The notes below the pieces were generated by a model. That model was given only the letters and a program-made list of their open reading frames with translations, did no database searches and was not told where the DNA came from. A stretch of DNA of 64,000 nt from a bacterium (GTDB taxonomy: Bacteria > Patescibacteriota > UBA1384 > 2-12-FULL-50-11), in NCBI GenBank assembly GCA_021463485.1, contig JAJTYJ010000001.1, forward strand, positions 139,932-203,931. The letters run 5' to 3'. Each line of letters begins with the position of its first letter. The first letter of the stretch is position 1. This document shows positions 3,112-59,846 of the stretch, one piece after another. Both the position numbers and the translations under genes were made by a program.

Positions 3112-3216
3112 TTGCGATCTCCACTAACTGAGCTTGCTCAATTAGTTTACGTAGTTTAGCAAAAGTCTGAGGAAAATGCAGCGCCCTGGGCTATGGCACT
3201 TCGGTTTATGCAGTTC

Positions 3217-3245
3217 TTGACAGCCCTATCCGATAAGCGTGCAAT
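3217..3245 (+). promoter_or_regulatory. Sigma70-like promoter TTGACA-N17-TGCAAT upstream of the VKOR gene (SD AGGAGG at 3254-3259)
   Basis: Consensus -35 hexamer, 17-nt spacer and a 4/6 -10 hexamer in the expected position before ATG 3264. Confidence 0.4.
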
Positions 3246-3263
3246 GACCTCAAAGGAGGCGCA

Positions 3264-3668
3264 ATGGATAATAAACTTGCGTTGGATATCGTCAAAGTGT
3301 TTGCGGTGATCGGGTTACTTGATACGTTGTATCTTATCTATCACAAACTGCGGGGAACCGACGTTTGGTGTCCGTTTTTTCCCGACGAGTGGTGTAGAAA
3401 AGTTCAAACAGCGCCTCAAAGTAAAACCTTTGGCATTCCGAATCCGATTCTCGGCTTCTTTATGTATGTAATTCTTCTTGCGATCGTTTTCTGGTACAGC
3501 GCCAACGCGCTCGGAATTGCAAAAATTGTTATCTGGATCGGCTTTGCGTTCTCGATGTACTTCACCTACGTCCAGGCATTCGTACTACGAGCGTTTTGTA
3601 CTTGGTGCGTTCTATCAGCAGTCAATTTTACCGTCATGTTTATCGCCAGTTTCTACTTAGTTTCGTAA
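3264..3668 (+). CDS. Vitamin K epoxide reductase (VKOR) family membrane protein
   Basis: Multi-TM protein with the paired cysteine motifs typical of VKOR (WCPFFPDEWC loop and TM CTWC motif). Confidence 0.75.
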   Translation: MDNKLALDIVKVFAVIGLLDTLYLIYHKLRGTDVWCPFFPDEWCRKVQTAPQSKTFGIPNPILGFFMYVILLAIVFWYSANALGIAKIVIWIGFAFSMYFTYVQAFVLRAFCTWCVLSAVNFTVMFIASFYLVS

Positions 3669-4382: not shown

Positions 4383-4861
4383 AATAGGTTGCTTTTAACG
4401 GAGTCGAAGTTAGGCTGATCGTACGCAACGTACTTCTCAACAAGGTTACCTTGTGCGTCGAGCCGAACCACCGTTGTTTGAACTGTTACGCCGTACTGTT
4501 TTCTTAAAGCTTGGTTTGAGTCGTAATCGACTTTAAAGATAGTCACACCGGATGGGATATCGCTCTGTTTAATGCTCGCATCGAGCGCTCGACACTGTGG
4601 GCACCAAGATGCATGAAAAAACAACAGCCGAGTTCCCTCGGTAGCGCTAACTGCCTCGGCGGAATAGTCCTTATACTCTCCCCCAGCAGCAGCGGTGTCC
4701 GTAGCGTCGGCTGAGCCCGAGTCTGTCGGTACGGTCGACTCTTGATTAGTCGGTGCTGTCGCGTTTTCGTCTACTGATTCTTGAGAGTTACTATTTTTGA
4801 TGAATATAACCGCAGCTCCAATCACAACTAACCCTATAACGATACCAATAATTATTTTCAT
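4379..4861 (-). CDS. Membrane-anchored thioredoxin-like thiol-disulfide oxidoreductase (TlpA/ResA-like)
   Basis: N-terminal TM (MKIIIGIVIGLVVIGAAVIFI) plus a thioredoxin fold with a WCPQC active site; start moved to the internal ATG at 4861. Confidence 0.75.
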   Translation of the reverse strand: MKIIIGIVIGLVVIGAAVIFIKNSNSQESVDENATAPTNQESTVPTDSGSADATDTAAAGGEYKDYSAEAVSATEGTRLLFFHASWCPQCRALDASIKQSDIPSGVTIFKVDYDSNQALRKQYGVTVQTTVVRLDAQGNLVEKYVAYDQPNFDSVKSNLL

Positions 4862-6714: not shown

Positions 6715-8592
6715 ATGCGAAAAAAACTACTGATCATCGCCGGGTTTTTAGTGGTAGTAGGTATCGCCGCTTTTGTATATTTTAATCGCAGCGAAGAGAG
6801 CGGAGAGTTTGAGGCGGCGTCTGTAACAACAGATGTTAAAGCGTATCCAGCTGACTCATTCGTCGAGTCGTTTGGTCTCAACACGCACTTTAGTTACGCC
6901 GACTACAACACTAATAGTTACTTCACCGATGTTTACACTTCTGTTGTTAAGCCAAAACTAAAAGAATTAGGCGTGCGTTATATCCGAGACAGCCATGGCA
7001 CGATGGGAACAGGCAATAACTCATTTAAGCGCTACGCCGAGCGGCTATCAGAACTGAGCAACCCGACAGACGGCAGCGCACCGATTGCGGTTAACTTAAT
7101 AGTTTCTAACTCAACCACATCAACCGCTTTCCCTGGAAATAAATGTTTCCAGGTTAAAAATAAACTACTACTGCAAGGTGGGGTTATCCCGAGCGGCTGT
7201 GGAGAAGAAGTCGGACAAACCGTAACGGCTGCAGTTAAGATCGCCGCGCTTGAAGGACCAAACGAGCCCGATCACTGTTTCTCTTGGAGACCGGAGTGCC
7301 AGATCTCCGGCACTTGGTACGATAAAATTACCAACAGAAATCCAACCTGGATCGAAGATACGATCAGCGCGATGCGATCGCTGTACGACGGGCTAAATGC
7401 CGATCCGTTAACTCAGTCTATTCCGATCCTCTCACCGTCGTACGTTCACCTCGAAGAATTTAGTACCGCAAAAAAGACTAATCCTGATGGTACTACAACA
7501 GACGTTTCGGCTGAGTTAGCGAAACTTGATGTGATTAAACCATTAGTCGACACGGGTAGCTTTCACCCGTACTGCACCGGTAAAGCTCAATCTTCTTGTT
7601 TGGGGCCAAAAGTTCAAGCCTGGCAAGCGTACTTGCCCGGTAAAAAACTAACTGCGACTGAATTAGGTTGGCCTGCCGCTACGCCGGTTCAAACCGGATT
7701 AGTCTCAGAAATCCAACAAGCTAAATATCTTCCGAGATCGCTCTTCACTCACTTTACGACTTCAGTAGACGCTCAAGGTCTTTCAGCGATCGATAAAAGT
7801 TATAACTACGAACTGCTCGACGAAGTTAGCCAATCCGACACTAAACAAAAAAATTTCGGGATCGTACGCGCCAACGGCACACCGAAACCGGCATTTACTG
7901 CCGTAAAGAACATCATCTCTCTACTAAAGGACCCGGGCTCCAGCTTTACAACTGGAAACTTAAACTACTCGCTAGCCAACAGTAGCACAACGCTCCGACA
8001 CGTCCTGTTTCAAAAGCGAGACAAGAGCTTTTGGCTAGTCGCCTATAACGACGTCGCAAGCAGTACCGATACCGACTCGATTGTTCCGGCAACGCTACAG
8101 CTCGGCACAATCTCAGATGTTACCGTCTACTCGCAAGATAGCGTCTCCCCAGTTGCGAGTTACACCAAAACCCAATCAGTAGCGCTTTCCATCCCGGACA
8201 AAATTGTGCTTATAAAAATCGTTCCGTCGGTAGTTGAGGAACCGCCTCCAAGTATTTCGATGCACGTCGGCGATATCGATTCGAGTACTTCTGCAGTTCA
8301 ACGAAACGGGCGATGGTCCGGGTCGGTTACGGTGACTGCCCACGATCAAAATGAAGTAGCGCTTTCTGGTGTGGTCGTACGTGGAACTTGGACCGGCGGG
8401 TATTCTGGGACAACAAGTTGTACAACAATCAACGGTAAATGCGTTATGTCGTTCCCAACAATAAAGAAAGCCTCTGTTACATTAACTGTAACTTCGCTAA
8501 GTAAGTCTGGTTACGTCTACCAGTCTGTCAGTAACCACGATCCAGACGGGTCGAGTAACGGCACGGTTATTACCGTTCGAAAGCCAAACTAA
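6715..8592 (+). CDS. Large secreted or membrane-anchored hypothetical protein (625 aa)
   Basis: N-terminal TM/signal anchor; long Ser/Thr-rich extracellular sequence; followed by a strong terminator. Confidence 0.65.
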   Translation: MRKKLLIIAGFLVVVGIAAFVYFNRSEESGEFEAASVTTDVKAYPADSFVESFGLNTHFSYADYNTNSYFTDVYTSVVKPKLKELGVRYIRDSHGTMGTGNNSFKRYAERLSELSNPTDGSAPIAVNLIVSNSTTSTAFPGNKCFQVKNKLLLQGGVIPSGCGEEVGQTVTAAVKIAALEGPNEPDHCFSWRPECQISGTWYDKITNRNPTWIEDTISAMRSLYDGLNADPLTQSIPILSPSYVHLEEFSTAKKTNPDGTTTDVSAELAKLDVIKPLVDTGSFHPYCTGKAQSSCLGPKVQAWQAYLPGKKLTATELGWPAATPVQTGLVSEIQQAKYLPRSLFTHFTTSVDAQGLSAIDKSYNYELLDEVSQSDTKQKNFGIVRANGTPKPAFTAVKNIISLLKDPGSSFTTGNLNYSLANSSTTLRHVLFQKRDKSFWLVAYNDVASSTDTDSIVPATLQLGTISDVTVYSQDSVSPVASYTKTQSVALSIPDKIVLIKIVPSVVEEPPPSISMHVGDIDSSTSAVQRNGRWSGSVTVTAHDQNEVALSGVVVRGTWTGGYSGTTSCTTINGKCVMSFPTIKKASVTLTVTSLSKSGYVYQSVSNHDPDGSSNGTVITVRKPN

Positions 8593-11026: not shown

Positions 11027-12511
11027 ATGAGTCAGAACAAGCCTGAGGCTGAGATCCGATTAGACAAGCTAAACGAACTTAAAAAGCTCGGCATCAATCC
11101 GTATCCGAGCAGAACGCCAAGCTTTCACGTAATCGGCGAGGTTCGAAAAAAGAAAGAAGGCGAGAAGATAGCAACGGTGGGTCGGATTACAGCGATTCGA
11201 GAGCACGGCAAGTCGACCTTTTTTGACATCGAAGATCCAGAAGAAAAGCTGCAAGTTTATTTTAAGCTCGACGAAGTCGGCGAGAAGTCGTATGAGCTCT
11301 TGAAACTTCTGGACGTTGGCGATTACGTATGGATCTCGGGGGAGATGTTTATTACCAAAGCTGGCGAGCTTTCGTTAAAAGCTAAAGAATTTCAGCTACT
11401 GTCAAAATCATTACTACCAATTCCGGAGGGCTGGCACGGCCTGACGGACGTCGAAACGCGTTACCGATCGCGCTCTTTGGATTTTAAGATTAACAAATCT
11501 ACCCGAGAAATCATTAAAACCCGCAGTAACATTATTAGCGGTATTCGCGACTTTCTCGATCGCCACGGATTCATCGAAATAACCACGCCGGTACTACAGC
11601 CAATCCCAGGCGGTGCCACCGCTAGGCCGTTTATTACCCACCACAACGCGCTTGACGCCGATTTTTATCTCCGAGTTTCCGACGAGCTGTATTTGAAACG
11701 CTTAGTCGTGGGTGGCTTCGAGCGCGTCTACGAGATCGGCCCGGATTTCCGCAACGAAGGATTGTCTCACATGCATAATCCAGAGTTCACGATGTGTGAG
11801 TTCTACTGGGCGTACCAAACGGCCGAAGGGTTGCGCGGTGTTACTCAAAAACTAGTTCAAGAATTAGTCGAAAAAACAAACGGTACGTTAACTATTGAGT
11901 ACCAAGGTCACAAACTCGACTTTAGCGGTGATTTCGTAGTTAAAAAATATCGCGACCTTATTGAAGAAGAGACCGGGATTAATATCGACACCGAGAACGA
12001 TTTTAAAAAGCTTAACGCCGCTGTTAAAGCAAAAAAAATTGAATTCAAGGGCCAAGATATTAAAGTGTGGAGCGAGTTAGTTGATGAGCTGTTCAAAAAA
12101 ACCTGCCGACCCAAGATTGTTCAACCTACATTCGTTATCGATTACCCGATCGCGACCGCGCCGCTAGCCAAACGTTACGAAGATCGGCCAGAGACTGCAC
12201 AAAAGTTCCAGCTAATTGTGGCGGGTGGGTTTGAATTAGTAAATGCGTACTCAGAGCTAAACGATCCGCTCGATCAAGAAGCGAGATTCCGTGAACAGAT
12301 GGAGATGCGCGAAGAAGGTTGGGACGAAGCGCAGATGCTCGACGAAAACTACATCGAGGCTTTAAAATTCGGTATGCCGCCGACTGCCGGTTGGGGAATG
12401 GGAATCGATCGGATGACGATGATTTTGACGAACCAATATTCTATAAAGGAAGTTATACCCTTTCCTACGCTAAAACCTATCAAGAATATTGGTGAGGAGA
12501 AAACGAAGTAA
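11027..12511 (+). CDS. lysS: Lysine--tRNA ligase, class II
   Basis: OB-fold anticodon-binding N-terminus plus class II motifs (FRNEG, GGxGxGIDR) and a typical C-terminus ...SIKEVIPFP. Confidence 0.95.
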   Translation: MSQNKPEAEIRLDKLNELKKLGINPYPSRTPSFHVIGEVRKKKEGEKIATVGRITAIREHGKSTFFDIEDPEEKLQVYFKLDEVGEKSYELLKLLDVGDYVWISGEMFITKAGELSLKAKEFQLLSKSLLPIPEGWHGLTDVETRYRSRSLDFKINKSTREIIKTRSNIISGIRDFLDRHGFIEITTPVLQPIPGGATARPFITHHNALDADFYLRVSDELYLKRLVVGGFERVYEIGPDFRNEGLSHMHNPEFTMCEFYWAYQTAEGLRGVTQKLVQELVEKTNGTLTIEYQGHKLDFSGDFVVKKYRDLIEEETGINIDTENDFKKLNAAVKAKKIEFKGQDIKVWSELVDELFKKTCRPKIVQPTFVIDYPIATAPLAKRYEDRPETAQKFQLIVAGGFELVNAYSELNDPLDQEARFREQMEMREEGWDEAQMLDENYIEALKFGMPPTAGWGMGIDRMTMILTNQYSIKEVIPFPTLKPIKNIGEEKTK

Positions 12512-12594
12512 TGCTGAGTATTCTCACTAACCAGCACTCAATTAAAGAAGTAATTCCGTTCCCGACGCTTCGCCCAATAAACGAAGGAAAATGA
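12511..12594 (+). repeat. Diverged duplicate of the lysS 3' end as a 27-codon ORF (MLSILTNQHSIKEVIPFPTLRPINEGK); its TGA overlaps the pgeF ATG
   Basis: Compared with lysS 12419..12511 (MILTNQYSIKEVIPFPTLKPIKN...): ~80% aa identity but ~70% nt identity, with differences concentrated at synonymous sites. Confidence 0.6.
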
Positions 12595-13593: not shown

Positions 13594-14190
13594 ATGAAGA
13601 CTCTGAAAATGCTTCTCTTCGTCATTGTGCTCGTCGTCGGCTCAGCTTCTGCGTTCGCGCAGAGCGTCGACGAACTCGGCGGAGCGAACCCGCCGGTCAC
13701 GAGCACCGACCCAGTCGGCCAAGACCCCACGAACTTGCCGAGTCATCAACCTCCGCCCTGGGAAACTCGGGAGGGAGTTGAGGTAGCGGCTCGGAATTAC
13801 TTCGAGGCAAAAAACCAGTACAACGAGTGTCGGCATCGCGGCGACAAGCCGGGCATGGCTCGCGCCGCGAAGCGGATGCGCACTCACTCGAACGCCCTGG
13901 CTGCCTTTAAAAAGCAGCAAGCGGCGCGCGACAAGGCGCAAGACGCTAGGCTCGATGCTCACAGCAACCTCGTGTGGAAGCACGAGTCGCAGTTGAACGG
14001 CAAAGGCGGTCTTAACGACCGACAAGGCAAAACCGAAAAGCGCGTAAAAACGCTTGAGGAAGAGATGGACGCCGTGACGCCGGCAATCGCCGGCATCAAC
14101 GGAAAGTTCGACGGACTCACTTGGTGGGTTCTGATTCTCACTCTCATCGTTCTGATCGGCTTTGGCCGACGCTACTGGATCCACCGCTAA
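13594..14190 (+). CDS. Secreted protein with a C-terminal TM anchor (198 aa) in a GC-rich island
   Basis: SD AAGGAG; signal peptide MKTLKMLLFVIVLVVGSASAFA; C-terminal TM WWVLILTLIVLIGF; ~60% GC. Confidence 0.55.
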   Translation: MKTLKMLLFVIVLVVGSASAFAQSVDELGGANPPVTSTDPVGQDPTNLPSHQPPPWETREGVEVAARNYFEAKNQYNECRHRGDKPGMARAAKRMRTHSNALAAFKKQQAARDKAQDARLDAHSNLVWKHESQLNGKGGLNDRQGKTEKRVKTLEEEMDAVTPAIAGINGKFDGLTWWVLILTLIVLIGFGRRYWIHR

Positions 14191-14207
14191 GGAGTCGGGA
14201 AGAAACC

Positions 14208-14855
14208 ATGAACATCAGTGACCTCATGCTGACCACGCCCCTCGGGGCGATCCTCATCATCGTCTTGCTCGTCCTGGCCGCCATCGCGGCTTGGGGGGCA
14301 TACGCAAACCGTCCTACCGCCAGGCTGGAGACGGCACCGCCGACTCCGCCTCAGCGACCGACCCCAGCTCCGGAGCCTCCGAAGAAGGAGGAGCCGAAGC
14401 CAATCGTCGAGCAACCCCTCCCCAAAAAGGAGTCGGAACCTTGCACTTGCAAGGAAGAGGAACCGTGCGCCAAGGAGCGCGAGGAGATTAGGCGCCTAGA
14501 AGGCGAGCTGGAGACGGCGAGAGCCGACAGCAACACGAAGGAGGGTGAGAACAACGAACTCACCAAACGTCTCGCCAACGCCAACCGGCGACTCGAGGAG
14601 TCGCAGACGAATGCGAAGCTGGCCAAGCCGCAGAAGGTGACGGCCAGTAACATCCTTCCGTTGCTCGATGATCTCGGCAACATCAACTTCAGCGCTGCAA
14701 AGCAGCTTCGGGCGGAGGCCAACAAGCCTCAGCCTGAGTACGCACGGATCGAGAAGCGACTCGGAGTTTTCGCGGACTACTGCGAGCAGCGCGGCTTCGA
14801 ACGCCCCGACCCCGGCACTCTACTGCAGCTTCTGCAGGAAGCGCTCAAGCAGTAG
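14208..14855 (+). CDS. N-terminally membrane-anchored Pro-rich / coiled-coil protein (215 aa) in a GC-rich island
   Basis: SD AAGGAG 9 nt upstream; TM helix, then a PTPPQRPTPAPEPP linker and a coiled-coil region. Confidence 0.55.
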   Translation: MNISDLMLTTPLGAILIIVLLVLAAIAAWGAYANRPTARLETAPPTPPQRPTPAPEPPKKEEPKPIVEQPLPKKESEPCTCKEEEPCAKEREEIRRLEGELETARADSNTKEGENNELTKRLANANRRLEESQTNAKLAKPQKVTASNILPLLDDLGNINFSAAKQLRAEANKPQPEYARIEKRLGVFADYCEQRGFERPDPGTLLQLLQEALKQ

Positions 14856-14930
14856 CGCAACAATGAATCCACAACGGACCGTTCTCAATGGCACCAGCCA
14901 ACGAGACGGTCCTCTTTTTTTATCTAATTT

Positions 14931-17780
14931 TTATTTGATTAATTTAATTAGCTCCCGGAGCGAGATAGTATGATCGTACTGTTGGTCACCTTCATCACGC
15001 ATTAAAGTAATATTAAAGTCTATGGTCTCCGGTTCTCCAACGCCTTCTGCCATTAGTATTGAAAGCGGAGTCTCCGATAGTTTTTGCGAGCGAGGGATAT
15101 TTAATGCCTCTTTAATCTCTGCTGCTTGTTCGCTGTTATCCGCTGCTTCAGAAAAATTAATTGACTGGCCCTCGGCGAAATCGTCTGGGGTTTTACCCGC
15201 CTCTGTAATTAAATCGTACAACTCCTTGTCGGGCTCAGACTCTGACTCCGGTTCTGGCTCGGGAGCTTGGGTTAGCTGCTCTACTTGTTTTTCAGGTTGT
15301 TGAGTATGATTTGGATTTTCTTCTTCGGTTGGGGACCGATCTTGTTCTGTAACTTCCTCCGATTGAGATGATTCTAGATTTCGCCCAACTACCATTGATT
15401 CGATCGTTGAATACACAAATGGTTGAGCAATTTTGCCAACCTTAGTAACGATCGTTTGACGCTTTGAATCGACTCGATCTACGGTGATTTTTACCAAACC
15501 ATTTTCTTTCTCACCGCTTCGCAGAACAGTAGTGCCGATTCGGCTTGAATCACCCTCAGGAACTCTCAAGAAAAGTACGTCACCTTGGGCTATATCTTCA
15601 AACTTTACGCTCGCTTCGTTCTCCTCAACGCTCTTATTTGCTTCTACCCTTACAGTATTAATATTAGGCTGGCCGTTAACAGTGATGGGCACCGGTTCTT
15701 CCTTTTGAAGCTGTTTCTTGGCGTTAGCATCTTCAAACCGGTCAACAATCTCGTTAAGCAGAGCTGTCACTTCTTTGCTTGATGGGTTTGTTATAACTTT
15801 CCAACCATCTTTCTCCCGTGAATCAGTTCTACCAAGAACAATCTTAGGCGGGTTCGGCAACGGCCGCCCTTCGCGATCGTACTCTGGCTCCGGATATTCT
15901 AACTTAATAGATTGGGAGAAATTGTCTTTGTTTTTCAAGAAGATCGACGTGACCGAACGACCGTCTGGTGCTGGAGTCTTGCTCATTGTGATCCCAAATG
16001 TGTTTAACGTATCTTCGTCTAATTCAGAAGCTCCAAACGAATACAGCTTCTCAACATCTTCAACTATCGACGCAGCGTCACTACTTTCTGGTTCAACTTT
16101 CTTATCGCCTTTTTCGTTATAAGCCTCCAGGAAAGCCTTGCTAATATCCTCTTCAACACCTTCAAGGATTTCTTGATGACCAGTAGTGTCTTTTTCGGCC
16201 CACCGAACCGGTAAGTTCTTGCCATTTTCACCAGCTGGTAATTCTTTTTGGTCACGGGCGTTAAGAGCTGCTTGCTCGCCATCCGTTTTATCAACGCCCG
16301 ATTCTTCTGGTTTTTTGCGCATCGGTAACGCTTTAGCTTCGCCGCCCGGTAATGCTAGCCGATTATCATCAGATTTTGATTCAGTTGCCTTGGGTTCTCC
16401 GCCACTCTTTTTAACAGATGAAAAGAACTCAGCCAAGAACTGCAGCTGTGCCCCAGCTATTGGCACAGCTTCTTTCCAGAACGATCCGGCTAACGCAGCA
16501 GCGCGCTCAGCAAGTTCGGGATTATTTTGCACTATCAAGTTGCGGAAGATACTATCGTTGAGACCTGATAATACGTGAACTTCGCTACCATTATTTAACA
16601 CGGCTGTTGTAACTTCGGCAGCCTTATTGACGCCAAACTCAGCCGCCGCAGTTCCACCGTTGTAGTTAAAGACAAAACCTCCTGTTTTTTCGAGTTGTTG
16701 GGCAAACCCTGGATCGGCGCTAGCGATATCACTCGGGTTAATTTTTTCGACAAAATGTTGTATTCCATCTTTATCAAAATCTGCCCATACCCCACGAACT
16801 TTATCAATATCGGCATTAAGCAAGCTCTCCTGAATTGCATATCCTCCCAGCCCACCTAATATTGAACCACCTGCTGCAATAATGTCAGCTACCTTCTCTC
16901 GTTTTTTTTCAAGACGCATCTTGTCATAGCCAAGTCTTTGCGTTTCAGCTAAACCACTGAGTTCCTTCTCCACTTTATTTTCCGCATAAAGTGCCTGGTA
17001 GCTTTCATAATGAGTGAGGTCAATAAAGTATTGATGGAGTTCTGCAAGTTGTTTGTCGATTTCCACCCTTCGTTCTTCGTCGGCCTCCTCGCGCTCCATG
17101 ACTAGATCCACAGCTTGGTCTTGAAGCCTGGCTGCCTCGGCAAATACCTTAGAGCGAGATTCGATAACTTTGGTTCTACCCTCACGTTCATCCTTCTTAA
17201 AATGTCGGTAAAGCTCGAAGGCCCCTCGCGCCGCAGCACCGCCAGCCAACGCCGCTAGAAAGACAGGCGAGCCGACTGTCCCACCGAGTATTGCGGCAAT
17301 ACCTGCACCGATACCACCAGCAACACCGGTTTTTACACCAATTTTGCCGAGACGAAGTGCGCCATCACGACCTAATAATCGAAATGCTTTTTTAAGTTCT
17401 TTGGCTTGCTCTTCAGGCTTTGCATCAGCAACTCGTTCAGAGATTTTTAAGTCAGAGTATTCACCTGCAAATACAGCTTTGGTTTGCTTAATAAATCGGC
17501 TAAGTACATTACCCTCACTAATTTTATAACGCTCCGCGATCTCTTCGATACTTCGCTGTCGGGCCTGCTCAACGTAATTAATAGCGAATTTCTCGCGTTC
17601 CTGTTTATTATCGACAACCGTATCGGCGTTCTCGGGTGAAATCAGTGGAGCAGGCTCTTCCGGGGTTGGTTCGCTTTCTGGTTTTTCGGCTACTTCCTCA
17701 GTGGTATCTTTCCACTCGTCGGGGCTTAATTCATAAACTTCCGGATCTTGGCCAGCATCAGCGCCCCTCAGCTCCGACAT
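14931..17780 (-). CDS. Large acidic hypothetical protein (949 aa) with Gly/Ala-rich hydrophobic segments
   Basis: Long open frame translationally coupled to the upstream 111-aa gene; glycine-zipper-like segments GVAGGIGAGIAAILGG and IIAAGGSILGGLGG; no NTP-binding motif or known domain recognised. Confidence 0.7.
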   Translation of the reverse strand: MSELRGADAGQDPEVYELSPDEWKDTTEEVAEKPESEPTPEEPAPLISPENADTVVDNKQEREKFAINYVEQARQRSIEEIAERYKISEGNVLSRFIKQTKAVFAGEYSDLKISERVADAKPEEQAKELKKAFRLLGRDGALRLGKIGVKTGVAGGIGAGIAAILGGTVGSPVFLAALAGGAAARGAFELYRHFKKDEREGRTKVIESRSKVFAEAARLQDQAVDLVMEREEADEERRVEIDKQLAELHQYFIDLTHYESYQALYAENKVEKELSGLAETQRLGYDKMRLEKKREKVADIIAAGGSILGGLGGYAIQESLLNADIDKVRGVWADFDKDGIQHFVEKINPSDIASADPGFAQQLEKTGGFVFNYNGGTAAAEFGVNKAAEVTTAVLNNGSEVHVLSGLNDSIFRNLIVQNNPELAERAAALAGSFWKEAVPIAGAQLQFLAEFFSSVKKSGGEPKATESKSDDNRLALPGGEAKALPMRKKPEESGVDKTDGEQAALNARDQKELPAGENGKNLPVRWAEKDTTGHQEILEGVEEDISKAFLEAYNEKGDKKVEPESSDAASIVEDVEKLYSFGASELDEDTLNTFGITMSKTPAPDGRSVTSIFLKNKDNFSQSIKLEYPEPEYDREGRPLPNPPKIVLGRTDSREKDGWKVITNPSSKEVTALLNEIVDRFEDANAKKQLQKEEPVPITVNGQPNINTVRVEANKSVEENEASVKFEDIAQGDVLFLRVPEGDSSRIGTTVLRSGEKENGLVKITVDRVDSKRQTIVTKVGKIAQPFVYSTIESMVVGRNLESSQSEEVTEQDRSPTEEENPNHTQQPEKQVEQLTQAPEPEPESESEPDKELYDLITEAGKTPDDFAEGQSINFSEAADNSEQAAEIKEALNIPRSQKLSETPLSILMAEGVGEPETIDFNITLMRDEGDQQYDHTISLRELIKLIK

Positions 17781-50970: not shown

Positions 50971-51879
50971 CTAGCGCAGCGCCTGTCTGCGTCGACGCTC
51001 TGCGAACTGGTATACGGTATACCAAAACGGTTTGCGGATAAAGTCCCAACTCCCGAGTAATCGCACCGACTCGCCTCCAAACTGCGTTTTAAAACGGGTG
51101 AGACTGGCGTAAGAATGGTTCGGTCTGTCTGGCGGAGCGATCGCTAATAAGTCGTAAATCCGACAACCCCTCTCTCTCGAGCGTTTCATCGCCGCCCAGT
51201 GCATTAGATACGGAGCCATTAAGTTTCGATCGCCGCCCGACGCTCCGTACAGAAAACTACCGGCGCCGCCCCAGTACAAAAATATCCCGGCAGAAAGCGC
51301 CGTACCGTTCTTTGAAACAACGAGCACCTCGCCGACGCCTTCTTTGGCTAAAAGCTTAACTAGCCCCTCAAAGTAACCGAGCTCGCGACCCTGGAACCGG
51401 TTTCGCTCCGATGTCTGTTGATACAGGCCGAAAAACTGTCCGACGGCCGATCGGTCGGTTGAAAAGTGTATTTGCAGATGATTGCGCTCAGCGACCTTGA
51501 TGTTATAGCGACCTTTCGGTTTCATCTCACTTAAAAGTTCCTCGTCGGACCTATCAAGATGAATCCACTGTCGGTATTCTGGCTGTACTTCCTCAAACGA
51601 CTTTCTCAGGCCGATGCCTTGCAGTTTCTCTACCGTCTCTGGCGAGTATCGTTCGAGAAATTCAAATCGAGTGAATATATCTGGTACCGCAGCCGCGCAC
51701 TCAGCCTTAACTTCCTGCAGTACTTCTTGAGAATAAGGCAGTTCCGGCCAGTACTCGAGCGATAGACCGAGCGGTAACTCCTTACGCAGGGCTAAGTGCT
51801 CGCCAACACGTCGCGGTCGCCAGCCACTTTTTTGCTTAAAATTCGCCCAAGCATCAGTCTGAAAGAAGGATGTAATCAC
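50971..51879 (-). CDS. FemAB-family peptidoglycan interpeptide-bridge aminoacyltransferase-like protein; apparent GTG start
   Basis: Length and C-terminal region MAPYLMHWAAMKRSRERGCRIYDL resemble FemAB/FemX; the first in-frame start is GTG at 51879. Confidence 0.6.
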   Translation of the reverse strand: MITSFFQTDAWANFKQKSGWRPRRVGEHLALRKELPLGLSLEYWPELPYSQEVLQEVKAECAAAVPDIFTRFEFLERYSPETVEKLQGIGLRKSFEEVQPEYRQWIHLDRSDEELLSEMKPKGRYNIKVAERNHLQIHFSTDRSAVGQFFGLYQQTSERNRFQGRELGYFEGLVKLLAKEGVGEVLVVSKNGTALSAGIFLYWGGAGSFLYGASGGDRNLMAPYLMHWAAMKRSRERGCRIYDLLAIAPPDRPNHSYASLTRFKTQFGGESVRLLGSWDFIRKPFWYTVYQFAERRRRQALR

Positions 51880-51930
51880 CTTATTAGTATACCCTGCCCG
51901 AAACAGGCTAATCCAGGTAAAATATAAGGG

Positions 51931-52017
51931 ATGAAGATACTTGCCATCGAAACTAGTTGTGACGCTTGCGAATCGTCCGAAGGACGCGGGAACATCCCGA
52001 GCAGGAGAATACCATGA
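51931..52017 (+). other. 28-codon upstream ORF whose first 11 codons (MKILAIETSCD) duplicate the tsaD N-terminus; its TGA overlaps the tsaD ATG (ATGA) and its 3' end carries the tsaD SD (AGGAG)
   Basis: Read directly: copy atgaagatacttgccatcgaaactagttgtgac versus tsaD atgaaaatactagccattgagacctcctgcgac; every difference is synonymous, including an AGT-to-TCC Ser codon-family switch. Confidence 0.5.
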
Positions 52018-53027
52018 AAATACTAGCCATTGAGACCTCCTGCGACGAAACAGCGGCAGCGATCGTTGAAGATCAAAATTACCGTCCGGTTGTACTAAGC
52101 GAAGTAGTCGCGTCTCAGATGGAGGTTCACGCCGAAACTGGTGGCGTCGTTCCCAATATCGCCGCTCGTCTTCACACTGAAGCTCTGCCGCAAGTACTCG
52201 CTCAGGTCACCAATAAGAAACGGCTGGACTTTGATGCCGTCGCTGTAACTGTTGGCCCGGGGCTAATCGGCTCGCTACTAGTGGGGGTTGCTGCGGCCAA
52301 AAGTATCGCTATGAGCAAAGACCTACCGTTTTTCGCGATTAATCACCTCGAAGGACATATTTACTCGGCTTGGCTTAACGAACAGTTGCCAGAGTTGCCG
52401 GCGATTATTGTGATAGTTTCTGGCGGTCACACCGAACTTGTCTTAATGGAACGACACGGAGTTTATCAGCACCTCGGCTCAACTCGCGACGACGCCGCCG
52501 GCGAGGCCTTCGATAAGGTTGCCAGACTACTCGAGCTAGGGTACCCGGGTGGACCGGAAATCGCGAAACTGGCGCTTCACGGCGCTCGTGACGCTTACCA
52601 ATTCCCAATCGGACTCGACGAGCGCGACAGTCTAGAGTTTTCGTTTAGCGGTCTAAAGGCATCTGTTTATTCGCTCCTTCAAAAGTTACCCACACCGCTA
52701 CCAGAGCATACAAAAGCCGATATTGCAGCCAGTTTTGAGCATACCGTTGCAGCTACGATCGCTCGCAAAACCGTAACAGCAGTCGGCCACTACCCAGGAT
52801 TACGCTCGGTCTGTTTGGTTGGCGGGGTCGCAGCCAATCGCTATTTGCGAACCTATCTCGAACAAACACTCAACCAGCGTCGACCGGACGTTCGCTTCTC
52901 GATCGCACCGCTCAACTACTGCACCGACAACGCAGCGATGATTGGAGCAGCGGCTGTCTATCACCATCTTTTTGGTAAACCTGATTCTTGGTATGCTAGT
53001 CAGGCTAATCCAAGCCTAGAGCTCTGA
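52014..53027 (+). CDS. tsaD: tRNA N6-adenosine threonylcarbamoyltransferase TsaD (Kae1/Gcp family)
   Basis: MKILAIETSCDETAAAIV N-terminus, HxEGH metal site (NHLEGH), C-terminal SGGVAAN; its stop overlaps the valS ATG. Confidence 0.9.
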   Translation: MKILAIETSCDETAAAIVEDQNYRPVVLSEVVASQMEVHAETGGVVPNIAARLHTEALPQVLAQVTNKKRLDFDAVAVTVGPGLIGSLLVGVAAAKSIAMSKDLPFFAINHLEGHIYSAWLNEQLPELPAIIVIVSGGHTELVLMERHGVYQHLGSTRDDAAGEAFDKVARLLELGYPGGPEIAKLALHGARDAYQFPIGLDERDSLEFSFSGLKASVYSLLQKLPTPLPEHTKADIAASFEHTVAATIARKTVTAVGHYPGLRSVCLVGGVAANRYLRTYLEQTLNQRRPDVRFSIAPLNYCTDNAAMIGAAAVYHHLFGKPDSWYASQANPSLEL

Positions 53028-55111
53028 TGAAAGAAATACCAACTCGCTACGACCACACCACCGAGCCTGCAACCTACGACGAGTGGGAGAAGTCTGGATT
53101 GTTCTCGCCGAAAGGCAAGGGTGAACCGTTTAGTATGATCATGCCACCGCCTAACGTTACCGGCGACCTCCACCTCGGTCACGGTTTAACTTATGCAGTT
53201 CACGATACCATTGCCCGCTACCAACGACGTCTCGGTAAAGACGTTCTAATTCTGCCGGGTGCCGACCACGCAGCGATTGCCGTTCAGGCCCTAGTCGAAA
53301 AGAAAGTCCAAAAAGAGCAGGGTATGAGCCGAACACAACTAGGTAAAGAAAAGTTCCTCGAAGAAGTTTGGAAATGGATCGAGTATTACATGCCTCGTAT
53401 GAAAGTATCACTTCGTCGATTTGGCCTATCGGCCGACTGGACTAAATTTCGTTTTACGATGGACGAGCACTCCCAATACGCCGTTCAGACAGCGTTTATC
53501 GAGCTCTATAAAAAGGATTTGATCTATCGGGGCAATTATCTGGTTAACTGGGACCCAAAACTACAAACCGCTATTTCCGACGATGAAGTTGTCTATCAAG
53601 AAGTGCCCGGTAAGCTGTATTGGATAAAATACGGGCCGATTACGTTGGCAACCGTTAGACCCGAGACAAAATTCGGCGACACCGCCATTGCCGTTCACCC
53701 AGAAGATCATCGCTACAAAAAATACGTCGGAACAGAAATTGAAGTAACACTGGTAACCGGCGAGAAGAAGAAAATCCCCGTTGTCGCCGACGAAGCCGTC
53801 GACCCCGAGTTTGGCACCGGCGCGGTTAAAGTTACACCGGCTCATGACCCGGCCGATTTTGAGATTGCTAAGCGCCACAATCTGCCGGCGATCGAAGTGA
53901 TTGACCAGTACGGCAAACTCACGGCCGTTGCCGGTGAGTTTGTTGGCCTTAAAGCCAGCGACGCTCGTGAAATCGTAGCGAAAAAATTAGAAGAGATGGG
54001 CCTTCTCGAAAAAACAGAAGACTACACGATCCGCCAACCGATTAGTGAACGAAGCGGTGCCGTCATCGAGCCACGTCTTTCGACGCAGTGGTTCATGAAA
54101 ACAACAGAACTAAAGAAAGAGGCGCTAGCGGTCGTTCGATCAGGTAAAATTACGTTTTTCCCAAAGAGTATTGAGAAAACGTATGAACACTGGCTAAGCA
54201 ACCTCCACGACTGGTGTATCTCACGTCAGCTCTGGTGGGGACACCCTATCCCAGCATACTACGACGAGAAAGGTAACATTTTCGTAGCTGATTCGCTCGA
54301 GTCAGCCCAAAAAGAAGCTGGCAAAGACGTCAAATTAACTGCCGATCAAGATGTTCTCGATACCTGGTTCTCGTCAGGGCTCTGGCCGTTCTCAACGCTC
54401 GGCTGGCCGAACGCTGAGGCACCAGATCTAAAACGGTACTTTCCTACTAGCCTACTAGAAACCGGCACAGATATTCTTTTCTTTTGGGTGGCCCGGATGA
54501 TTATCTTGAGTCTTGCCTTGCAAAAAGAAGTGCCCTTCAAGCAAGTCTACTTTCACGGTCTTATTTTGGACGAAGACGGTAAAAAAATGAGTAAAAGTAA
54601 GGGTAATGTTCTTGACCCGCTGATACTTATTGATAAATACGGCGCTGATGCGTTCCGGATGAGCGTAATCGGTGGCAATTCGGTCGGACAGCCGCAAAGA
54701 TACTCCGAACAAAAGATCATTAAGTATCGAAATTTTGTTACAAAAGTGTGGAACGCAGCACGGTTTGTGGCTATAACCGCCGACAACACTAAACCAGTAA
54801 AGCCAACTAAACTCGACCGAACTGAAACCGAGTTTTGCCAAAAACTAGAGCGTCTAACTCAAGACAACCAAAAGTTCTTCGCTAACTACCAACTCGGAGT
54901 GGCGTTAGAAGAATTGTACGAGTTTTTCTGGCACGAATTCGCCGATAAACTAATCGAATATGAGAAGAAAGTGATCCAAGAAACTACCGACGTCGAGCGA
55001 GCCAAGGAGGCCAAAGCCTTCTTAAGTTGGGCGCTGCAAGAACAGCTACCGCTCCTTTCCGACTTTGCGCCGTTTCTTGTTGATCGCATCAAGAAGGAGA
55101 TGTTTCAATGA
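53027..55111 (+). CDS. valS: Valine--tRNA ligase (short form, no long C-terminal coiled coil)
   Basis: Class I HIGH region PPPNVTGDLHLGHG (ValRS-type), CP1 editing domain, WCISRQLWWGHPIP, KMSKS (KKMSKSKGNV). Confidence 0.85.
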   Translation: MKEIPTRYDHTTEPATYDEWEKSGLFSPKGKGEPFSMIMPPPNVTGDLHLGHGLTYAVHDTIARYQRRLGKDVLILPGADHAAIAVQALVEKKVQKEQGMSRTQLGKEKFLEEVWKWIEYYMPRMKVSLRRFGLSADWTKFRFTMDEHSQYAVQTAFIELYKKDLIYRGNYLVNWDPKLQTAISDDEVVYQEVPGKLYWIKYGPITLATVRPETKFGDTAIAVHPEDHRYKKYVGTEIEVTLVTGEKKKIPVVADEAVDPEFGTGAVKVTPAHDPADFEIAKRHNLPAIEVIDQYGKLTAVAGEFVGLKASDAREIVAKKLEEMGLLEKTEDYTIRQPISERSGAVIEPRLSTQWFMKTTELKKEALAVVRSGKITFFPKSIEKTYEHWLSNLHDWCISRQLWWGHPIPAYYDEKGNIFVADSLESAQKEAGKDVKLTADQDVLDTWFSSGLWPFSTLGWPNAEAPDLKRYFPTSLLETGTDILFFWVARMIILSLALQKEVPFKQVYFHGLILDEDGKKMSKSKGNVLDPLILIDKYGADAFRMSVIGGNSVGQPQRYSEQKIIKYRNFVTKVWNAARFVAITADNTKPVKPTKLDRTETEFCQKLERLTQDNQKFFANYQLGVALEELYEFFWHEFADKLIEYEKKVIQETTDVERAKEAKAFLSWALQEQLPLLSDFAPFLVDRIKKEMFQ

Positions 55112-56202: not shown

Positions 56203-57687
56203 ATGCGCGCGAGGGGAAACTTGGCCTGGTTACTAGCTCTGTTTATGTTGCTCCAATTATTTCCTGTGCCTGTCCTAGGACAGGCGGGAGAAGTTCGAGA
56301 AGGGGCTTTCGGCCAGGCTTGTACCGCAGATTATTACCGCGAGGGGATCAACGTTACAAAAAGCACGTTTAGGGTGGAAGAGGCAGAAAGCGGATCAGTA
56401 CCGAACAAGATCTACCTCTTTATGACCACCAACCGCGGCAGAACTTGCCGTGATATTCTTAGACCAAAGAACGACAACATCCCTCGTAGCGAGTTTGAAA
56501 ACCCGAGTAGCCTAGGCAGTGGGACTCGGTTTACGTCATTTCAGAGTGGAATAATGCCCAAATACTTTGTGTTGCATGGTCGCCGCGCAACTGGACAAAG
56601 GATCGAAAAGAATTTTGAAGTTTCCATCATAGTTGATACCGACCCTAACTCTTCTACGTACGCGTACACAAGGGGTGTTTACCTGAGAAATGAAAGTAAT
56701 GATGTTTTACCTTGGTTGGGCTTGGGCGGCTTTCATGAGGTAATTAACGGCCCGTATATGGATTGGCCCACTTTTAAGAGTAGGTATAACGAGAACAATA
56801 TGGCTAACGATATCTCGCGCGAGCATTTCCGAACTTTCAAACCGATACTTGACGGCTTGCACTCGATGACGGGAAGGCTTGTTAAAGGGCTCACCCTCGG
56901 GGAAGAGACCACTAATAACGTTAAGCTGGAGGGTAACCTAGATATTGACTTTACTGGTTCGGAGTTAGAGGCAGCCAACGTCCGGGATGACGTTGGCCCA
57001 TTTAAGGGATTACGGGATCGGCTGCCAAACCTCGGCGATGGTGAGTTAAAAATCGCGCTTTGGTTCCGTAATCCAGATTACTTCCTTGGCTACTCATTAA
57101 AGGAAACAATAAGTATTCCTCTTCGAGCCGGCGAGAAGTCGACTGGAAAGTTTTCTCTTAATAAAAAACTTTTAACCGGCGAGTATTTCGCAACGGGCGC
57201 TGTAGACATAAAGACCGATGCAACCGTCCAAGCAGCTGGGGAGACTCTATTAGTCGAACCGATTGGTAAACCAATAGACCTATCGCAATACGAACGCCAA
57301 CTTTCAGAAGTCGAAGCTAGTCTGACCAACGATAACGTCTCTCAATACTACGTCGGGATAACAGGAGAAGGTCGTACAGCAGTGTTCTTTGGTTTAGATA
57401 AGTTCACCGTCGAGAAGGAGACAACTCAGATTACCACTAACCCAGTTATGAAATTACTAAGCGAAACCCCTTCGGACGGCTCCTTGACTGTTGGGAATGA
57501 CGAGTGCGGTATCTTCAGTATTATCGCCGCGGGTGACATCGGGGAAATTTTCTCAAAAATGATCGACTGTATGTTCAAGAGAGTCTTTAGACCTATGATC
57601 GACTGGGCAGCTGATCTTGTTCAGAAAGCGGCTGGTGTTTCTTGGGGTCCAGAGCCTGCAATCCATCGAAAGCAATTATTAGTATGA
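56203..57687 (+). CDS. Secreted hypothetical protein (494 aa), first gene of the T4SS-like cluster
   Basis: Signal peptide MRARGNLAWLLALFMLLQLFPVPVLGQ; its stop overlaps the next ATG (ATGA). Confidence 0.6.
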   Translation: MRARGNLAWLLALFMLLQLFPVPVLGQAGEVREGAFGQACTADYYREGINVTKSTFRVEEAESGSVPNKIYLFMTTNRGRTCRDILRPKNDNIPRSEFENPSSLGSGTRFTSFQSGIMPKYFVLHGRRATGQRIEKNFEVSIIVDTDPNSSTYAYTRGVYLRNESNDVLPWLGLGGFHEVINGPYMDWPTFKSRYNENNMANDISREHFRTFKPILDGLHSMTGRLVKGLTLGEETTNNVKLEGNLDIDFTGSELEAANVRDDVGPFKGLRDRLPNLGDGELKIALWFRNPDYFLGYSLKETISIPLRAGEKSTGKFSLNKKLLTGEYFATGAVDIKTDATVQAAGETLLVEPIGKPIDLSQYERQLSEVEASLTNDNVSQYYVGITGEGRTAVFFGLDKFTVEKETTQITTNPVMKLLSETPSDGSLTVGNDECGIFSIIAAGDIGEIFSKMIDCMFKRVFRPMIDWAADLVQKAAGVSWGPEPAIHRKQLLV

Positions 57688-59846
57688 AGCGAAGTGTGAC
57701 TAAGCCATACATTTTTTACCTGGTATTTTTCATTTTGCTAATCTTGCCTATCACCGTGTTCGCCCAAGATTCTGGTGGTAGCACTACTGGGCCAGCAGGG
57801 TTTGGGAGCCCGCTCGGTGCGTTAATCTCAGAAGAAACCGGCTTCGTTTACCAGGCCTGGCGAGTAACTAGAAGCGTCATCAATATATTGCTTATTATCG
57901 CCCTATTCGCGATTTCTTTTTCCAACATTACTCGTATCAATATCGATACTTACACTATTAAAAAAGCGTTACCAAACTTAATTATTGGGATAATTCTGGC
58001 TAACGCCAGTCTATATATCATCAGGTTTATGTCCGATATCACCACCGTAGTTACCTACTTTTTTGTTAACCAAGTTGGATCAACGACATTTGCCGATTTC
58101 ATTGGTGACACAGCCGAGTTAATAGGAAGAAACACCCTCGAGACAATTGGTTGGGGAGTCGGATTGCTCGCACCGCTGTTAATATTCTTGTTCGCTCTTG
58201 TTACGATTATTGGTTTATTATGGCTAGCGTTTCTGCTCTACTTCCGGCTAGTAGCAATCTACCTGCTCACAATTCTCTCTCCGCTAGCATTCGTCTCTTA
58301 CGGTATTCCTGGTTTCGACAAGTACTTTAAACAGTGGTGGCAGCAGTTTACTAAGTGGTTATTTATCCTTCCGGCAATGTCGGCCGTTTTCTGGCTAATG
58401 CTGGTTATTGGGGAGGCTGGGGAGAACGAAAGTATCGCGCGTCTCCTTATCATGTATGTTCTGTTTTTCACCGCTTTAACGTTGCCAAGCAAGATGGGTG
58501 GCGCTGTCATCGATAAAGCTTCAAAGGCGTTTATGAAATATACGGGTGCCGGCGCAGCAAAACAGGGGGCGATAGAGACGGCTGGGCGTACTGGGCAACA
58601 GCTAGCGCTCCGAGCACCGCTATACGGTCGACTTAAAAAGTCGATGGAATTTGCAAAAAAAGCGCAGGAACAAGATATAAAAAATTTACAAACATCTGCT
58701 GAAAGTAAGGCAATGCGGGGGCGCAATTACCGGAAATTCGCCCGTACAACCAAACGCGGCGAGGAGTTATCTAACTACTTGGCAGCCGAACAAGCTAAGG
58801 CGAACACAAAGGCTGGGGAGGGCAAGCTTGCCAACTTCTTAGACCGACTGCAGCGCCGAGGCGGTTCTCTACCAGAGCGCCAAATATCCTCTGCCTACAA
58901 CAAAGGTTTGGAAGAGGCTCGAGAAAAGATAGAGATGAATCGAAAAAGAGTTGCCTTTACCAAAAACGATGACAACAAGAAACTCATGGAGCAATTCGCG
59001 GCAGCAAGTTCTAAAGACAAAGCATTTGCTGACGCAGTACAGAGCGCTGAGCGTGAAGTTACTGGCATCTACACAACGGGGCGCAAGGACGTTATTAGTA
59101 AGCTTCGAGAGGCTGGCGATATCGCTGGAGAAATCGACAAGATCGAGAAGAAACCAGAGTCCGAACGAACCGATGAAGAAAAGGGCGATTTAACTTTCTG
59201 GAAATCTTACCACTCCGAGTTATTAGCAGACCTAGAGAAGCTTAAGGTCGGTCACGACGACTTGGCCGGCATGAGCGCCGAAGATATGGTACAGAAATAT
59301 CAAACCGATAAAACCTTCTCGACTCTGGTGAAGGCTGAGGAGAAACGGCAGGCCAAGGCCTTTAATGAAGGGATTAAAGCTCAGAACGAGGACACGCTCG
59401 CCGATGGGAGCGTTAAAAGTATCCTTAAGGATATCAACGAAGGCCTTAAGGATCTTAACGAGACTGAACGCGCTAATCTTAAAAAGAAGTTCTTTAACAG
59501 CGACACAATTGGAATGGATGCAAAGTTCCAAAACACGTTAATTAAAAACATCCAAGCGCTAAAAGATATCGGCAAAAATCAGCGCGACACCCGAAGCCCA
59601 GAAGCACTGCGGGAACTCGCTAGCATGATTATGAAAGATGGCGAGAAACCAATCGTTGTTAAGAGCAGAACAACTGGCGAAGAACACACGTTTGATAATT
59701 TTGATGAATTCCAGTCGAAACTATTTAGTGGTGATAAGGATAAGAAGCTAACCACACAAGATATGAAAAACGCCGTACTATCCCACGACTCAGTTTCTGG
59801 CACCCCGGCTTCACATCTAGGAAAGGTCCCAAAGAAAGATGACTGA
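57684..59846 (+). CDS. Polytopic membrane protein with a long charged C-terminal tail; VirB6/TrbL-like T4SS channel component (tentative)
   Basis: Signal/TM then ~6 TM helices over ~300 aa, then a ~400-aa K/E-rich hydrophilic tail; position upstream of VirB3-like and VirB4 genes. Confidence 0.55.
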   Translation: MKRSVTKPYIFYLVFFILLILPITVFAQDSGGSTTGPAGFGSPLGALISEETGFVYQAWRVTRSVINILLIIALFAISFSNITRINIDTYTIKKALPNLIIGIILANASLYIIRFMSDITTVVTYFFVNQVGSTTFADFIGDTAELIGRNTLETIGWGVGLLAPLLIFLFALVTIIGLLWLAFLLYFRLVAIYLLTILSPLAFVSYGIPGFDKYFKQWWQQFTKWLFILPAMSAVFWLMLVIGEAGENESIARLLIMYVLFFTALTLPSKMGGAVIDKASKAFMKYTGAGAAKQGAIETAGRTGQQLALRAPLYGRLKKSMEFAKKAQEQDIKNLQTSAESKAMRGRNYRKFARTTKRGEELSNYLAAEQAKANTKAGEGKLANFLDRLQRRGGSLPERQISSAYNKGLEEAREKIEMNRKRVAFTKNDDNKKLMEQFAAASSKDKAFADAVQSAEREVTGIYTTGRKDVISKLREAGDIAGEIDKIEKKPESERTDEEKGDLTFWKSYHSELLADLEKLKVGHDDLAGMSAEDMVQKYQTDKTFSTLVKAEEKRQAKAFNEGIKAQNEDTLADGSVKSILKDINEGLKDLNETERANLKKKFFNSDTIGMDAKFQNTLIKNIQALKDIGKNQRDTRSPEALRELASMIMKDGEKPIVVKSRTTGEEHTFDNFDEFQSKLFSGDKDKKLTTQDMKNAVLSHDSVSGTPASHLGKVPKKDD

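Follow-up and report, generated by a model that had tools for sequence, protein, structure and literature searches.

In a 64,000-nucleotide (nt) stretch of DNA from an uncultivated bacterium of the Patescibacteriota (assembly GCA_021463485.1, contig JAJTYJ010000001.1, positions 139,932 to 203,931), the gene tsaD begins twice. The whole of that stretch is called the window here, and L-numbers denote the loci of relatives that were compared with it. Ahead of the intact tsaD gene lies a stub that repeats its first 11 codons, and this stub opens a short upstream open reading frame (uORF) that ends on the tsaD start codon. The reading favored here, to which a probability of roughly 60% is given, is that the arrangement is a recombination scar whose stub open reading frame (ORF) has become translationally coupled to tsaD. 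It would be a duplication of the 5' end of a gene that was born of recombination and in which the relic start is probably reused as a coupled uORF.

A displaced tsaD start and the cassette behind it

The features of the locus, with window positions, are as follows.

51880-51930, no strand: native divergent intergenic region, between a femAB-like gene (GTG at 51879, minus strand) and the putative ancestral tsaD start
51931-51963, plus strand: the stub, MKILAIETSCD (ATGAAGATACTTGCCATCGAAACTAGTTGTGAC), putatively the ancestral tsaD codons 1-11, recognized by its peptide match and by a position shared with the tsaD start of L091 and L099
51931-52017, plus strand: the uORF, 28 codons (MKILAIETSCDACESSEGRGNIPSRRIP), with 17 unrelated codons after the stub and its TGA on the tsaD ATG
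51964-52013, plus strand: cassette leader (spacer), 50 nt, with homologous spacers in L085, L093 and L097 and a more diverged one in L111
51974-51986, plus strand: hairpin 1, CGTCC-GAA-GGACG, predicted, with compensatory changes in relatives
51998-52007, plus strand: 5' arm of stem 2, CG-A-GCAGGAG, in the last uORF codons and holding the AGGAG Shine-Dalgarno sequence, from fold prediction and covariation
52014-53027, plus strand: tsaD, 337 amino acids, full-length Pfam TsaD match (E = 4.5e-82), with codons 1 to ~10 apparently derived from the cassette and the remainder native gene body
52037-52047, plus strand: 3' arm of stem 2, CTCCTGC-GA-CG, equal to tsaD codons 8-12, from its pairing with the 5' arm in all variants

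Codons 1-11 of tsaD (52014-52046, ATGAAAATACTAGCCATTGAGACCTCCTGCGAC) also encode MKILAIETSCD and are identical to the stub at 24 of 33 nt. The nine differences fall in seven codons and all are synonymous, including the serine codon, which is AGT in the stub and TCC in tsaD; beyond codon 11 the two sequences are unrelated. The TGA of the uORF (52015-52017) overlaps the tsaD ATG (52014-52016) as ATGA at 52014-52017, and the AGGAG at 52003-52007 stands 6 nt ahead of that ATG. A preliminary description of this DNA had reported both the repeat with synonymous differences only and a stub ORF with 17 unrelated codons, an AGGAG and a TGA/ATG overlap. Sequence and translation bear out each of these points, to which it can be added that the AGGAG is also part of the 5' arm of a conserved stem.

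Several simple origins for the repeat were ruled out. None of 200,000 simulations with nine random substitutions kept the stub peptide unchanged and codon-shuffled windows contained zero 8-residue peptide repeats, which excludes chance. A simple tandem duplication of tsaD nt 1-83 was rejected since the spacer, read in the forward direction, resembles neither tsaD nt 34-130 (codons 12-28) nor the upstream flank. An N-terminally extended TsaD starting from the in-frame TTG at 51966 was also rejected, because about 90 clade homologues all start with M[KR]IL and the extension is not kept in L111. No second copy of the spacer was found in the window, in 118 fetched loci or in viral contigs. A consensus scan detected no promoter and no intrinsic terminator at the tsaD locus, and the Rfam 15 covariance models gave no match up to E = 1 in 51700-52200.

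The structure is not peculiar to one assembly. The exact window TsaD protein is encoded on contigs of four separately assembled runs, in all of which the 200 nt around the stub are identical, and six Joint Genome Institute (JGI) metagenome contigs (TsaD 98% identical) have the same structure with few changes. As 10 or more assemblies, produced in several projects and with several assemblers, contain the stub structure, an assembly artefact was ruled out. Homologues of TsaD and LysS form a continuous series from 98% to ~55% identity, all of it from uncultivated Patescibacteria of the candidate phyla radiation (CPR), with source names that include Berkelbacteria and Saccharimonadales. Gene order in the clade is conserved as polA, Mur ligase and femAB-like (minus strand), then tsaD and valS (plus strand). 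As a negative control, the stub was absent from 80 tsaD loci of other phyla (at most 51% identity, among the matches listed), and a metagenome pattern scan for the feature, in a collection from which the JGI samples with L085-90 are evidently missing, returned one locus, L097.

Five sequence variants of the cassette (the window, L085-90, L093, L111 and L097), which belong to three sublineages of a Berkelbacteria-like CPR clade, were compared with seven uninterrupted tsaD alleles. This comparison indicates that the stub is the ancestral, native tsaD start and that the copy now joined to the gene body arrived together with the spacer, because uninterrupted relatives start tsaD exactly at the position of the stub and because codon 7 carries a signature that separates the two copies. 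L091 (TsaD 82% identity) and L099 (77%) are the nearest relatives of the window that lack the feature, and their tsaD starts at the stub position after a homologous flank; the region 51880-51930 aligns with the sequence just upstream of tsaD in both (...agtataccctgcc...ccaggtaaa...ATG). The stubs of L093 and L111 start with GTG, and L100 (91-92% identical), which is the nearest relative of both, shares this rare start, having GTG as its tsaD start at the same position after an almost identical flank. L097 carries the stub, and in L101-109 (Berkelbacteria GW2011_GWA2_46_7 type), the relatives nearest to it, tsaD starts at the stub position. Each of the three cassette-bearing sublineages has nearest relatives that lack the cassette. 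All five stubs and all seven uninterrupted genes have GAA as codon 7, and all five cassette-borne starts have GAG.

The cassette measures 83-86 nt and consists of a leader of 50-53 nt followed by the second copy of tsaD codons 1 to ~10. The offset from ATG to ATG is 83 nt in the window, L085-90 and L111, 85 nt in L097 and 86 nt in L093. The variants share their architecture and the motifs GCTTGCGA and CATTCCGAGCA, and the sequence at the joint is TGYGAC, then GCT-TGCGA. To judge from these sequences, the copies must have grown apart in different lineages, each in use there as a tsaD start, and have been joined by recombination later. The synonymous-only differences then require no selection on the stub peptide, as each copy would have been a working TsaD N-terminus until the joining, and the protein-level constraint on the stub that the preliminary description had proposed becomes unnecessary.

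The shared motifs and the GAG at codon 7 point to a common origin of the cassette variants. The cassette also appears to be exchanged as a unit between relatives, because the close relatives L093 and L111 differ sharply only across it. These two loci are 90-100% identical over hundreds of bases to either side of it, but 44-62% identical from about -60 to +35 of the tsaD ATG. The divergent island extends from stub codon 9 across the spacer to real codon 11, and identity has recovered to 92-100% by 20-70 nt into tsaD. Between the window and L085, seven differing sites lie within -54 to -18 and two in the surrounding ~700 nt. The ancestry of local blocks therefore differs from that of their flanks in the L093/L111 island and in the codon-7 GAG/GAA signature, as it does in a block at lysS that is described below. 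It had been supposed that a conserved uORF across the clade would speak for a regulatory leader and not for a scar. The architecture does recur in three sublineages, but the nearest relatives are without it, and between close relatives it is the only part that differs sharply. The cassette thus looks like a transferable, polymorphic allele and not like a clade-wide leader.

The same data bear on how much of the gene was replaced. The TsaD body of L093 groups with the uninterrupted L100 and L098 (91-92% amino-acid identity) and synteny is conserved, which speaks against the earlier idea that tsaD as a whole had been displaced by a xenolog; the foreign part of the locus appears to be only ~85 nt at the 5' end. 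Of the imprecise gene-replacement scar first envisaged, the joining of diverged copies by recombination stands and the replacement of the whole gene does not.

Further differences were seen within tsaD and valS. The window and L085 differ at 45 sites in tsaD +758 to +875, mostly third codon positions, in otherwise near-identical DNA. Compared with this 98%-identical strain (L085, L086), the window has dense patches of differences, most of them at third codon positions, at 52772-52889, ~53227-53290 and ~53869-54394 (valS), with long stretches of nearly identical sequence in between. From their pattern, the patches at tsaD and valS would evidently be a mosaic of short imports from divergent relatives.

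RNA structure, the uORF and coupling to tsaD

In all cassette variants, the reverse complement of tsaD codons 8-10 stands 13-19 nt ahead of the real ATG, and an outer CG/CG extension reaches codon 12. The arms of the resulting stem 2 are GCAGGAG/CTCCTGC in the window and L085, GCAGGAGG/CCTCCTGC in L093, GCATGACG/CGTCATGC in L111 and GCAACTGGT/ACCAGTTGC in L097. The 3' arm varies by synonymous choices of Thr and Ser codons only, and the 5' arm follows these changes: 4 of 11 pairs have changed in both partners and every core pair is intact. This covariation score was reached by one of 500 shuffles, and slid registers scored near zero. The complement at -13 to -19 is present in all five cassette alleles and, at that position, in none of the seven uninterrupted alleles; the random expectation for a complement of 7-9 nt there is 4% to 0.2%. 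Local folds give the same contrast, with z-scores of -3.6 for the cassette start of the window and -4.3, -2.5 and -4.05 for the others, whereas native starts of uninterrupted alleles are unstructured (z = +1.1 and +0.2).

Other pairings were considered as well. The stem of hairpin 1 is CGTCC/GGACG in the window, CGTTC/GAACG in L093 and CCGCC/GGCGG in L097, and L085 differs in the loop only. The 3' half of the L093 spacer repeats codons 8-16 in inverted orientation, imperfectly and over 25 nt (p = 0.002). A search for pairing of the stub's own codons 8-10 with the upstream flank found no such stem.

The stub ORF is open in all variants and is 28 codons long in four of the five. In the window, L085 and L111, where codon 2 begins with A, its stop falls on the real start as ATGA; in L093, where codon 2 is CGT, the same position is reached by TAATG and 3 extra nt. 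The 5' arm of stem 2 contains AGGAG in the window and is not Shine-Dalgarno-like in L111 and L097, and in these two loci no Shine-Dalgarno-like sequence was found ahead of the real tsaD ATG.

A sixth form was noticed in L110 (2960-3004), in which an ORF of 14 codons (MKRKLFFLAPRRSK) runs from the native tsaD start position to an ATGA on the tsaD ATG. Here the TsaD-like peptide is lost and a uORF with the ATGA overlap is kept. L110 has a hairpin, GAAAAG-AAAA-CTTTTC, and its start codon lies in a predicted stem, with folds no more stable than shuffles (z = -1.3 and -0.15). The ORF of L110 may be a derived or an independent form of the cassette.

These observations can be assembled into a model. 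An 83-86 nt cassette would have recombined in after tsaD codon 11, bringing a structured leader and a copy of the start from another lineage, and would have persisted as an allele, with short-patch recombination between diverged relatives exchanging, adding or removing it. The distance between femAB and tsaD in uninterrupted relatives is 12-50 nt, and so the native tsaD mRNA would have a very short leader or none. Ribosomes would then load at the old start, which would be unstructured and near the 5' end of the mRNA, and would translate the 28-codon stub ORF. While in its last codons they would melt stem 2 and free the new Shine-Dalgarno sequence and ATG, and termination at the TGA that overlaps the tsaD ATG would be followed by reinitiation at that ATG. 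Expression of tsaD would in this way still depend on the old start. We infer from this anatomy that the uORF is translated and that translation of tsaD depends on it. A translationally coupled leader was among the options named in the preliminary description, and it fits the anatomy in silico.

A number of points weigh against this model or against parts of it. The covariation statistics are thin, as there are only 4-5 cassette variants, and perfect stem arms could come from templated correction of a quasi-palindrome instead of selection. In L097 the uORF runs to 34 codons, and its stop lies 18 nt within tsaD. Most reading frames of the spacer are open, so an open uORF frame is weak evidence by itself. 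A transcription start inside the spacer would bypass the uORF, and the real start in the window, which has a good AGGAG, might initiate alone when the stem breathes. As for the origin of the cassette, a donor context for its leader was looked for and none was found, and vertical inheritance with several precise losses could also produce the patchy distribution.

A rival reading shares the origin proposed here and takes the scar to be inert, with a stub ORF and stems that have no role and a tsaD that is translated from its own AGGAG and ATG. Such a scar would agree with a spacer that changes fast between near-identical strains and is open in most frames regardless, with scans that gave no promoter, terminator or Rfam family, and with the resemblance of the lysS and tsaD 3' stubs to by-products of recombination. 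However, an inert scar does not account for a stem 2 that covaries and is specific to cassette alleles, nor for a uORF stop that is held on the start codon by two sequence solutions and, in L110, even after loss of the peptide, and L111 and L097 lack a Shine-Dalgarno-like sequence from which independent initiation could proceed. We consider this reading unlikely. A more elaborate role for the leader was also weighed. TsaD makes the N6-threonylcarbamoyladenosine (t6A) modification, and the decoding of ANN codons depends on t6A. The uORF could then be a dedicated sensing leader, in which the speed of the ribosome on ANN-rich codons controls tsaD translation by keeping the stem open. Of the 28 codons of the window uORF, 12 are ANN codons, as are 6 of the last 8, which cover the 5' arm, and the geometry of stem and uORF resembles leader-peptide control. 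Yet ANN codons number 9-13 per uORF and are not clearly above background in L097 (9/34), this content is partly forced by the sequence of the arm, there is no regulatory codon run and no terminator/antiterminator pair, and most relatives do without the leader, all of which makes a sensing function very improbable.

Two further readings concern what the cassette is or was, the first being a self-restoring mini-element, or what is left of an integrative element, that is specific for the ETSCD-coding site of tsaD and carries a replacement 5' end in the manner of e14 in icd. An identical insertion point in three sublineages with a patchy distribution would be expected of such an element, as would a unit that has TGYGAC repeats at its borders, an internal hairpin and inverted repeats and that close relatives swap as a block, and the icd/icdC pair is a precedent (PMC13626634). 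Against it stand the mere 50-53 nt between the copies, the lack of any integrase, transposase or nuclease gene called within ~6 kb of the tsaD stub, the failure to find a larger version or a second copy (in the window, 118 loci or viral contigs), and the lysS and tsaD 3' stubs, which have no such spacer; the mini-element is decidedly unlikely. Displacement of the whole tsaD by a xenolog, or an artefact of assembly or strain merging, could each leave a duplicated gene end with synonymous differences, and replacement of a whole gene did occur at lysS in L113. Nevertheless, the TsaD body tracks close relatives in intact synteny, L093/L111 identity recovers early within tsaD and the structure is reproduced across projects and assemblers, so that both are scarcely credible. 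That the cassette is either a tiny selfish, self-restoring ETSCD-site insertion spreading between diverged CPR lineages or a t6A/ANN autoregulatory leader that gives TsaD feedback is, as one claim, quite doubtful, though either would, if true, be much more interesting than a scar.

The lysS stub and other gene-end copies

Both ends of 54 window genes were scanned sensitively, and just two stubs were found, the one at tsaD and a C-terminal one at lysS.

12511-12594, plus strand: lysS C-terminal stub ORF, 27 codons (MLSILTNQHSIKEVIPFPTLRPINEGK), whose ATG overlaps the lysS TAA (TAATG) and whose TGA overlaps the ATG of the next gene (ATGA)

The gene that follows the lysS stub belongs to the Cu-oxidase_4 family. 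The real end of lysS in the window is ...ILTNQYSIKEVIPFPTLKPIKNIGEEKTK followed by the stop, and the short tail of the stub is the common form in the clade. In L113 (LysS 92% amino-acid identity), three lysS ends stand in a row at 4476-4666, linked by overlapping stop and start codons. The first of these is the gene's own end; the second is the window's real end in the form of a 35-codon ORF, with 1 nt difference over the shared stretch; and the third is the window's stub, with four synonymous differences. The block with both older ends matches the window at 93-100% identity, compared with ~80% for the lysS body and 65-90% for the downstream gene. By these alignments, L113 shows a layered, imprecise replacement of the gene together with its end, and the earlier interpretation of the lysS stub as a true imprecise replacement scar is upheld by the stacked ends. 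Unequal homologous exchange between a stub and the real end could add or remove such layers.

Other gene-end copies were noticed near tsaD in L111. At 7030-7152, the tsaD stop is followed by a 36-nt spacer with a 7-bp hairpin (CTGAACT...AGTTCAG), then by an older tsaD C-terminal stub of 29 codons (IGAAAVYRHLFGKPDDWKTVEANPNLSL, then the stop) and by a 128-amino-acid ORF before valS. At ~3149-3629 (minus strand), the Mur ligase gene has two copies of its 3' end (...KAVLEELLVKY), 480 nt apart and with 20-21 of 21 nt identical, on either side of an insert with a 97-amino-acid ORF; a recent insertion appears to have duplicated the gene end. Gene-end scars thus seem to be frequent in the clade and capable of being stacked.

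The junctions of the tsaD/valS area differ between relatives. Small genes of the Pfam 23S_rRNA_IVP four-helix-bundle family or with a NYN domain occupy them in L094 (7021-7416 and 9585-9953), L101 (1564-1923) and L098 (5404-5922), and in both the window and L100 tsaD overlaps valS directly. By this comparison, the junctions of the locus appear to be insertion hot spots. Elsewhere in the window, 14001-15000 has a G+C content of 0.58, against ~0.47 in its neighbours, and a strong AT skew, with no RNA family at the gathering threshold, and an ORF at 57642-59846 with a match to the Pfam family TrbL_3 (type IV secretion-like) adjoins several ORFs without a recorded Pfam match.

The tsaD gene is essential and universally conserved. 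If the model proposed here is true, even such a gene tolerates an insertion in its first codons, as the displaced start is reused as a mini-ORF on which ribosomes load. The finding points to a habit of this CPR clade in which short, very divergent patches of DNA are recombined into core genes and leave stacked gene-end stubs, joined to one another where stop and start codons overlap. With the help of such stubs, recombination in uncultivated bacteria could be dated and followed. Annotation pipelines overlook the small ORFs and leaders to which the stubs give rise, and gene callers and pseudogene filters need to handle them.

Comparison with known systems

In programmed bypassing (T4 gene 60 and the mitochondrial byps elements), a non-coding gap of ~50 nt with a hairpin lies between identical codons. 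The tsaD locus is similar in its gap of ~50 nt with a hairpin and in having a GAC codon on both sides. Translational bypass was nevertheless ruled out here, as no stop follows the take-off codon (GAC is followed by GCT) and the downstream tsaD copy is a complete ORF with its own ATG. Two other classes were set aside. A leader-peptide attenuator does not agree with the lack of a terminator-like site and of a codon run or with the variable ANN content, and the search of Rfam 15 returned no match to a described RNA family.

Coupling through an upstream ribosome is exemplified by mok/hok and MS2. In the window and the relatives with a uORF, as in other coupled systems, a co-directional ORF ends as ATGA or TAATG on the downstream start (in L097, 18 nt downstream of it) and the 5' arm of a stem lies inside the upstream ORF. 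Stem 2, the candidate start-hiding structure, is predicted in all variants, covaries and is absent from the uninterrupted alleles. The tsaD locus differs in that the upstream ORF is the displaced original start and not a gene, that the 3' arm of the stem is tsaD codons 8-12, and that coupling is predicted from the anatomy. Coupling by an ATGA overlap and by the unfolding of an inhibitory structure are both established mechanisms (PMC6728339, PMC4538824, PMC12548453), and an ORF that unfolds a start-hiding stem would, by analogy, be the closest functional counterpart of the stub ORF.

In structure, the closest analogue appears to be icd/icdC at the attachment site of e14 (and phage 21) in Escherichia coli, where an integrase-bearing prophage of 15 kb lies between the copies and the 3' end of the gene is duplicated (PMC13626634, citing Hill et al. 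1989). There, a gene end is likewise present twice, once joined and once as a stub, with conservative differences that stem from the incoming version, and the tsaD copies do show mainly synonymous differences. However, the tsaD copies are 50 nt apart, it is the 5' end that is affected, and the neighbours are femAB-like, Mur ligase, polA and valS genes. The tsaD feature falls outside this class because there is no mobile element or recombinase between or beside the copies.

The likeliest source processes, again by analogy, would be homology-facilitated illegitimate recombination together with the mosaic, short-patch outcomes of natural transformation (PMC3240628; PMC13344027), and this is supported by the natural competence that has been shown for Saccharibacteria (PMC10633639). 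Those systems have a homology anchor on one side and an out-of-register join on the other; here, dense short donor patches lie in near-identical genomes. An uninterrupted gene is found at the same position in L091, L099, L100 and L101-109, and blocks differ in ancestry from their flanks, as is expected of a recombination scar. The tsaD cassette differs from the products of those systems in that it has spread or persisted across sublineages and has gained or kept an RNA structure.

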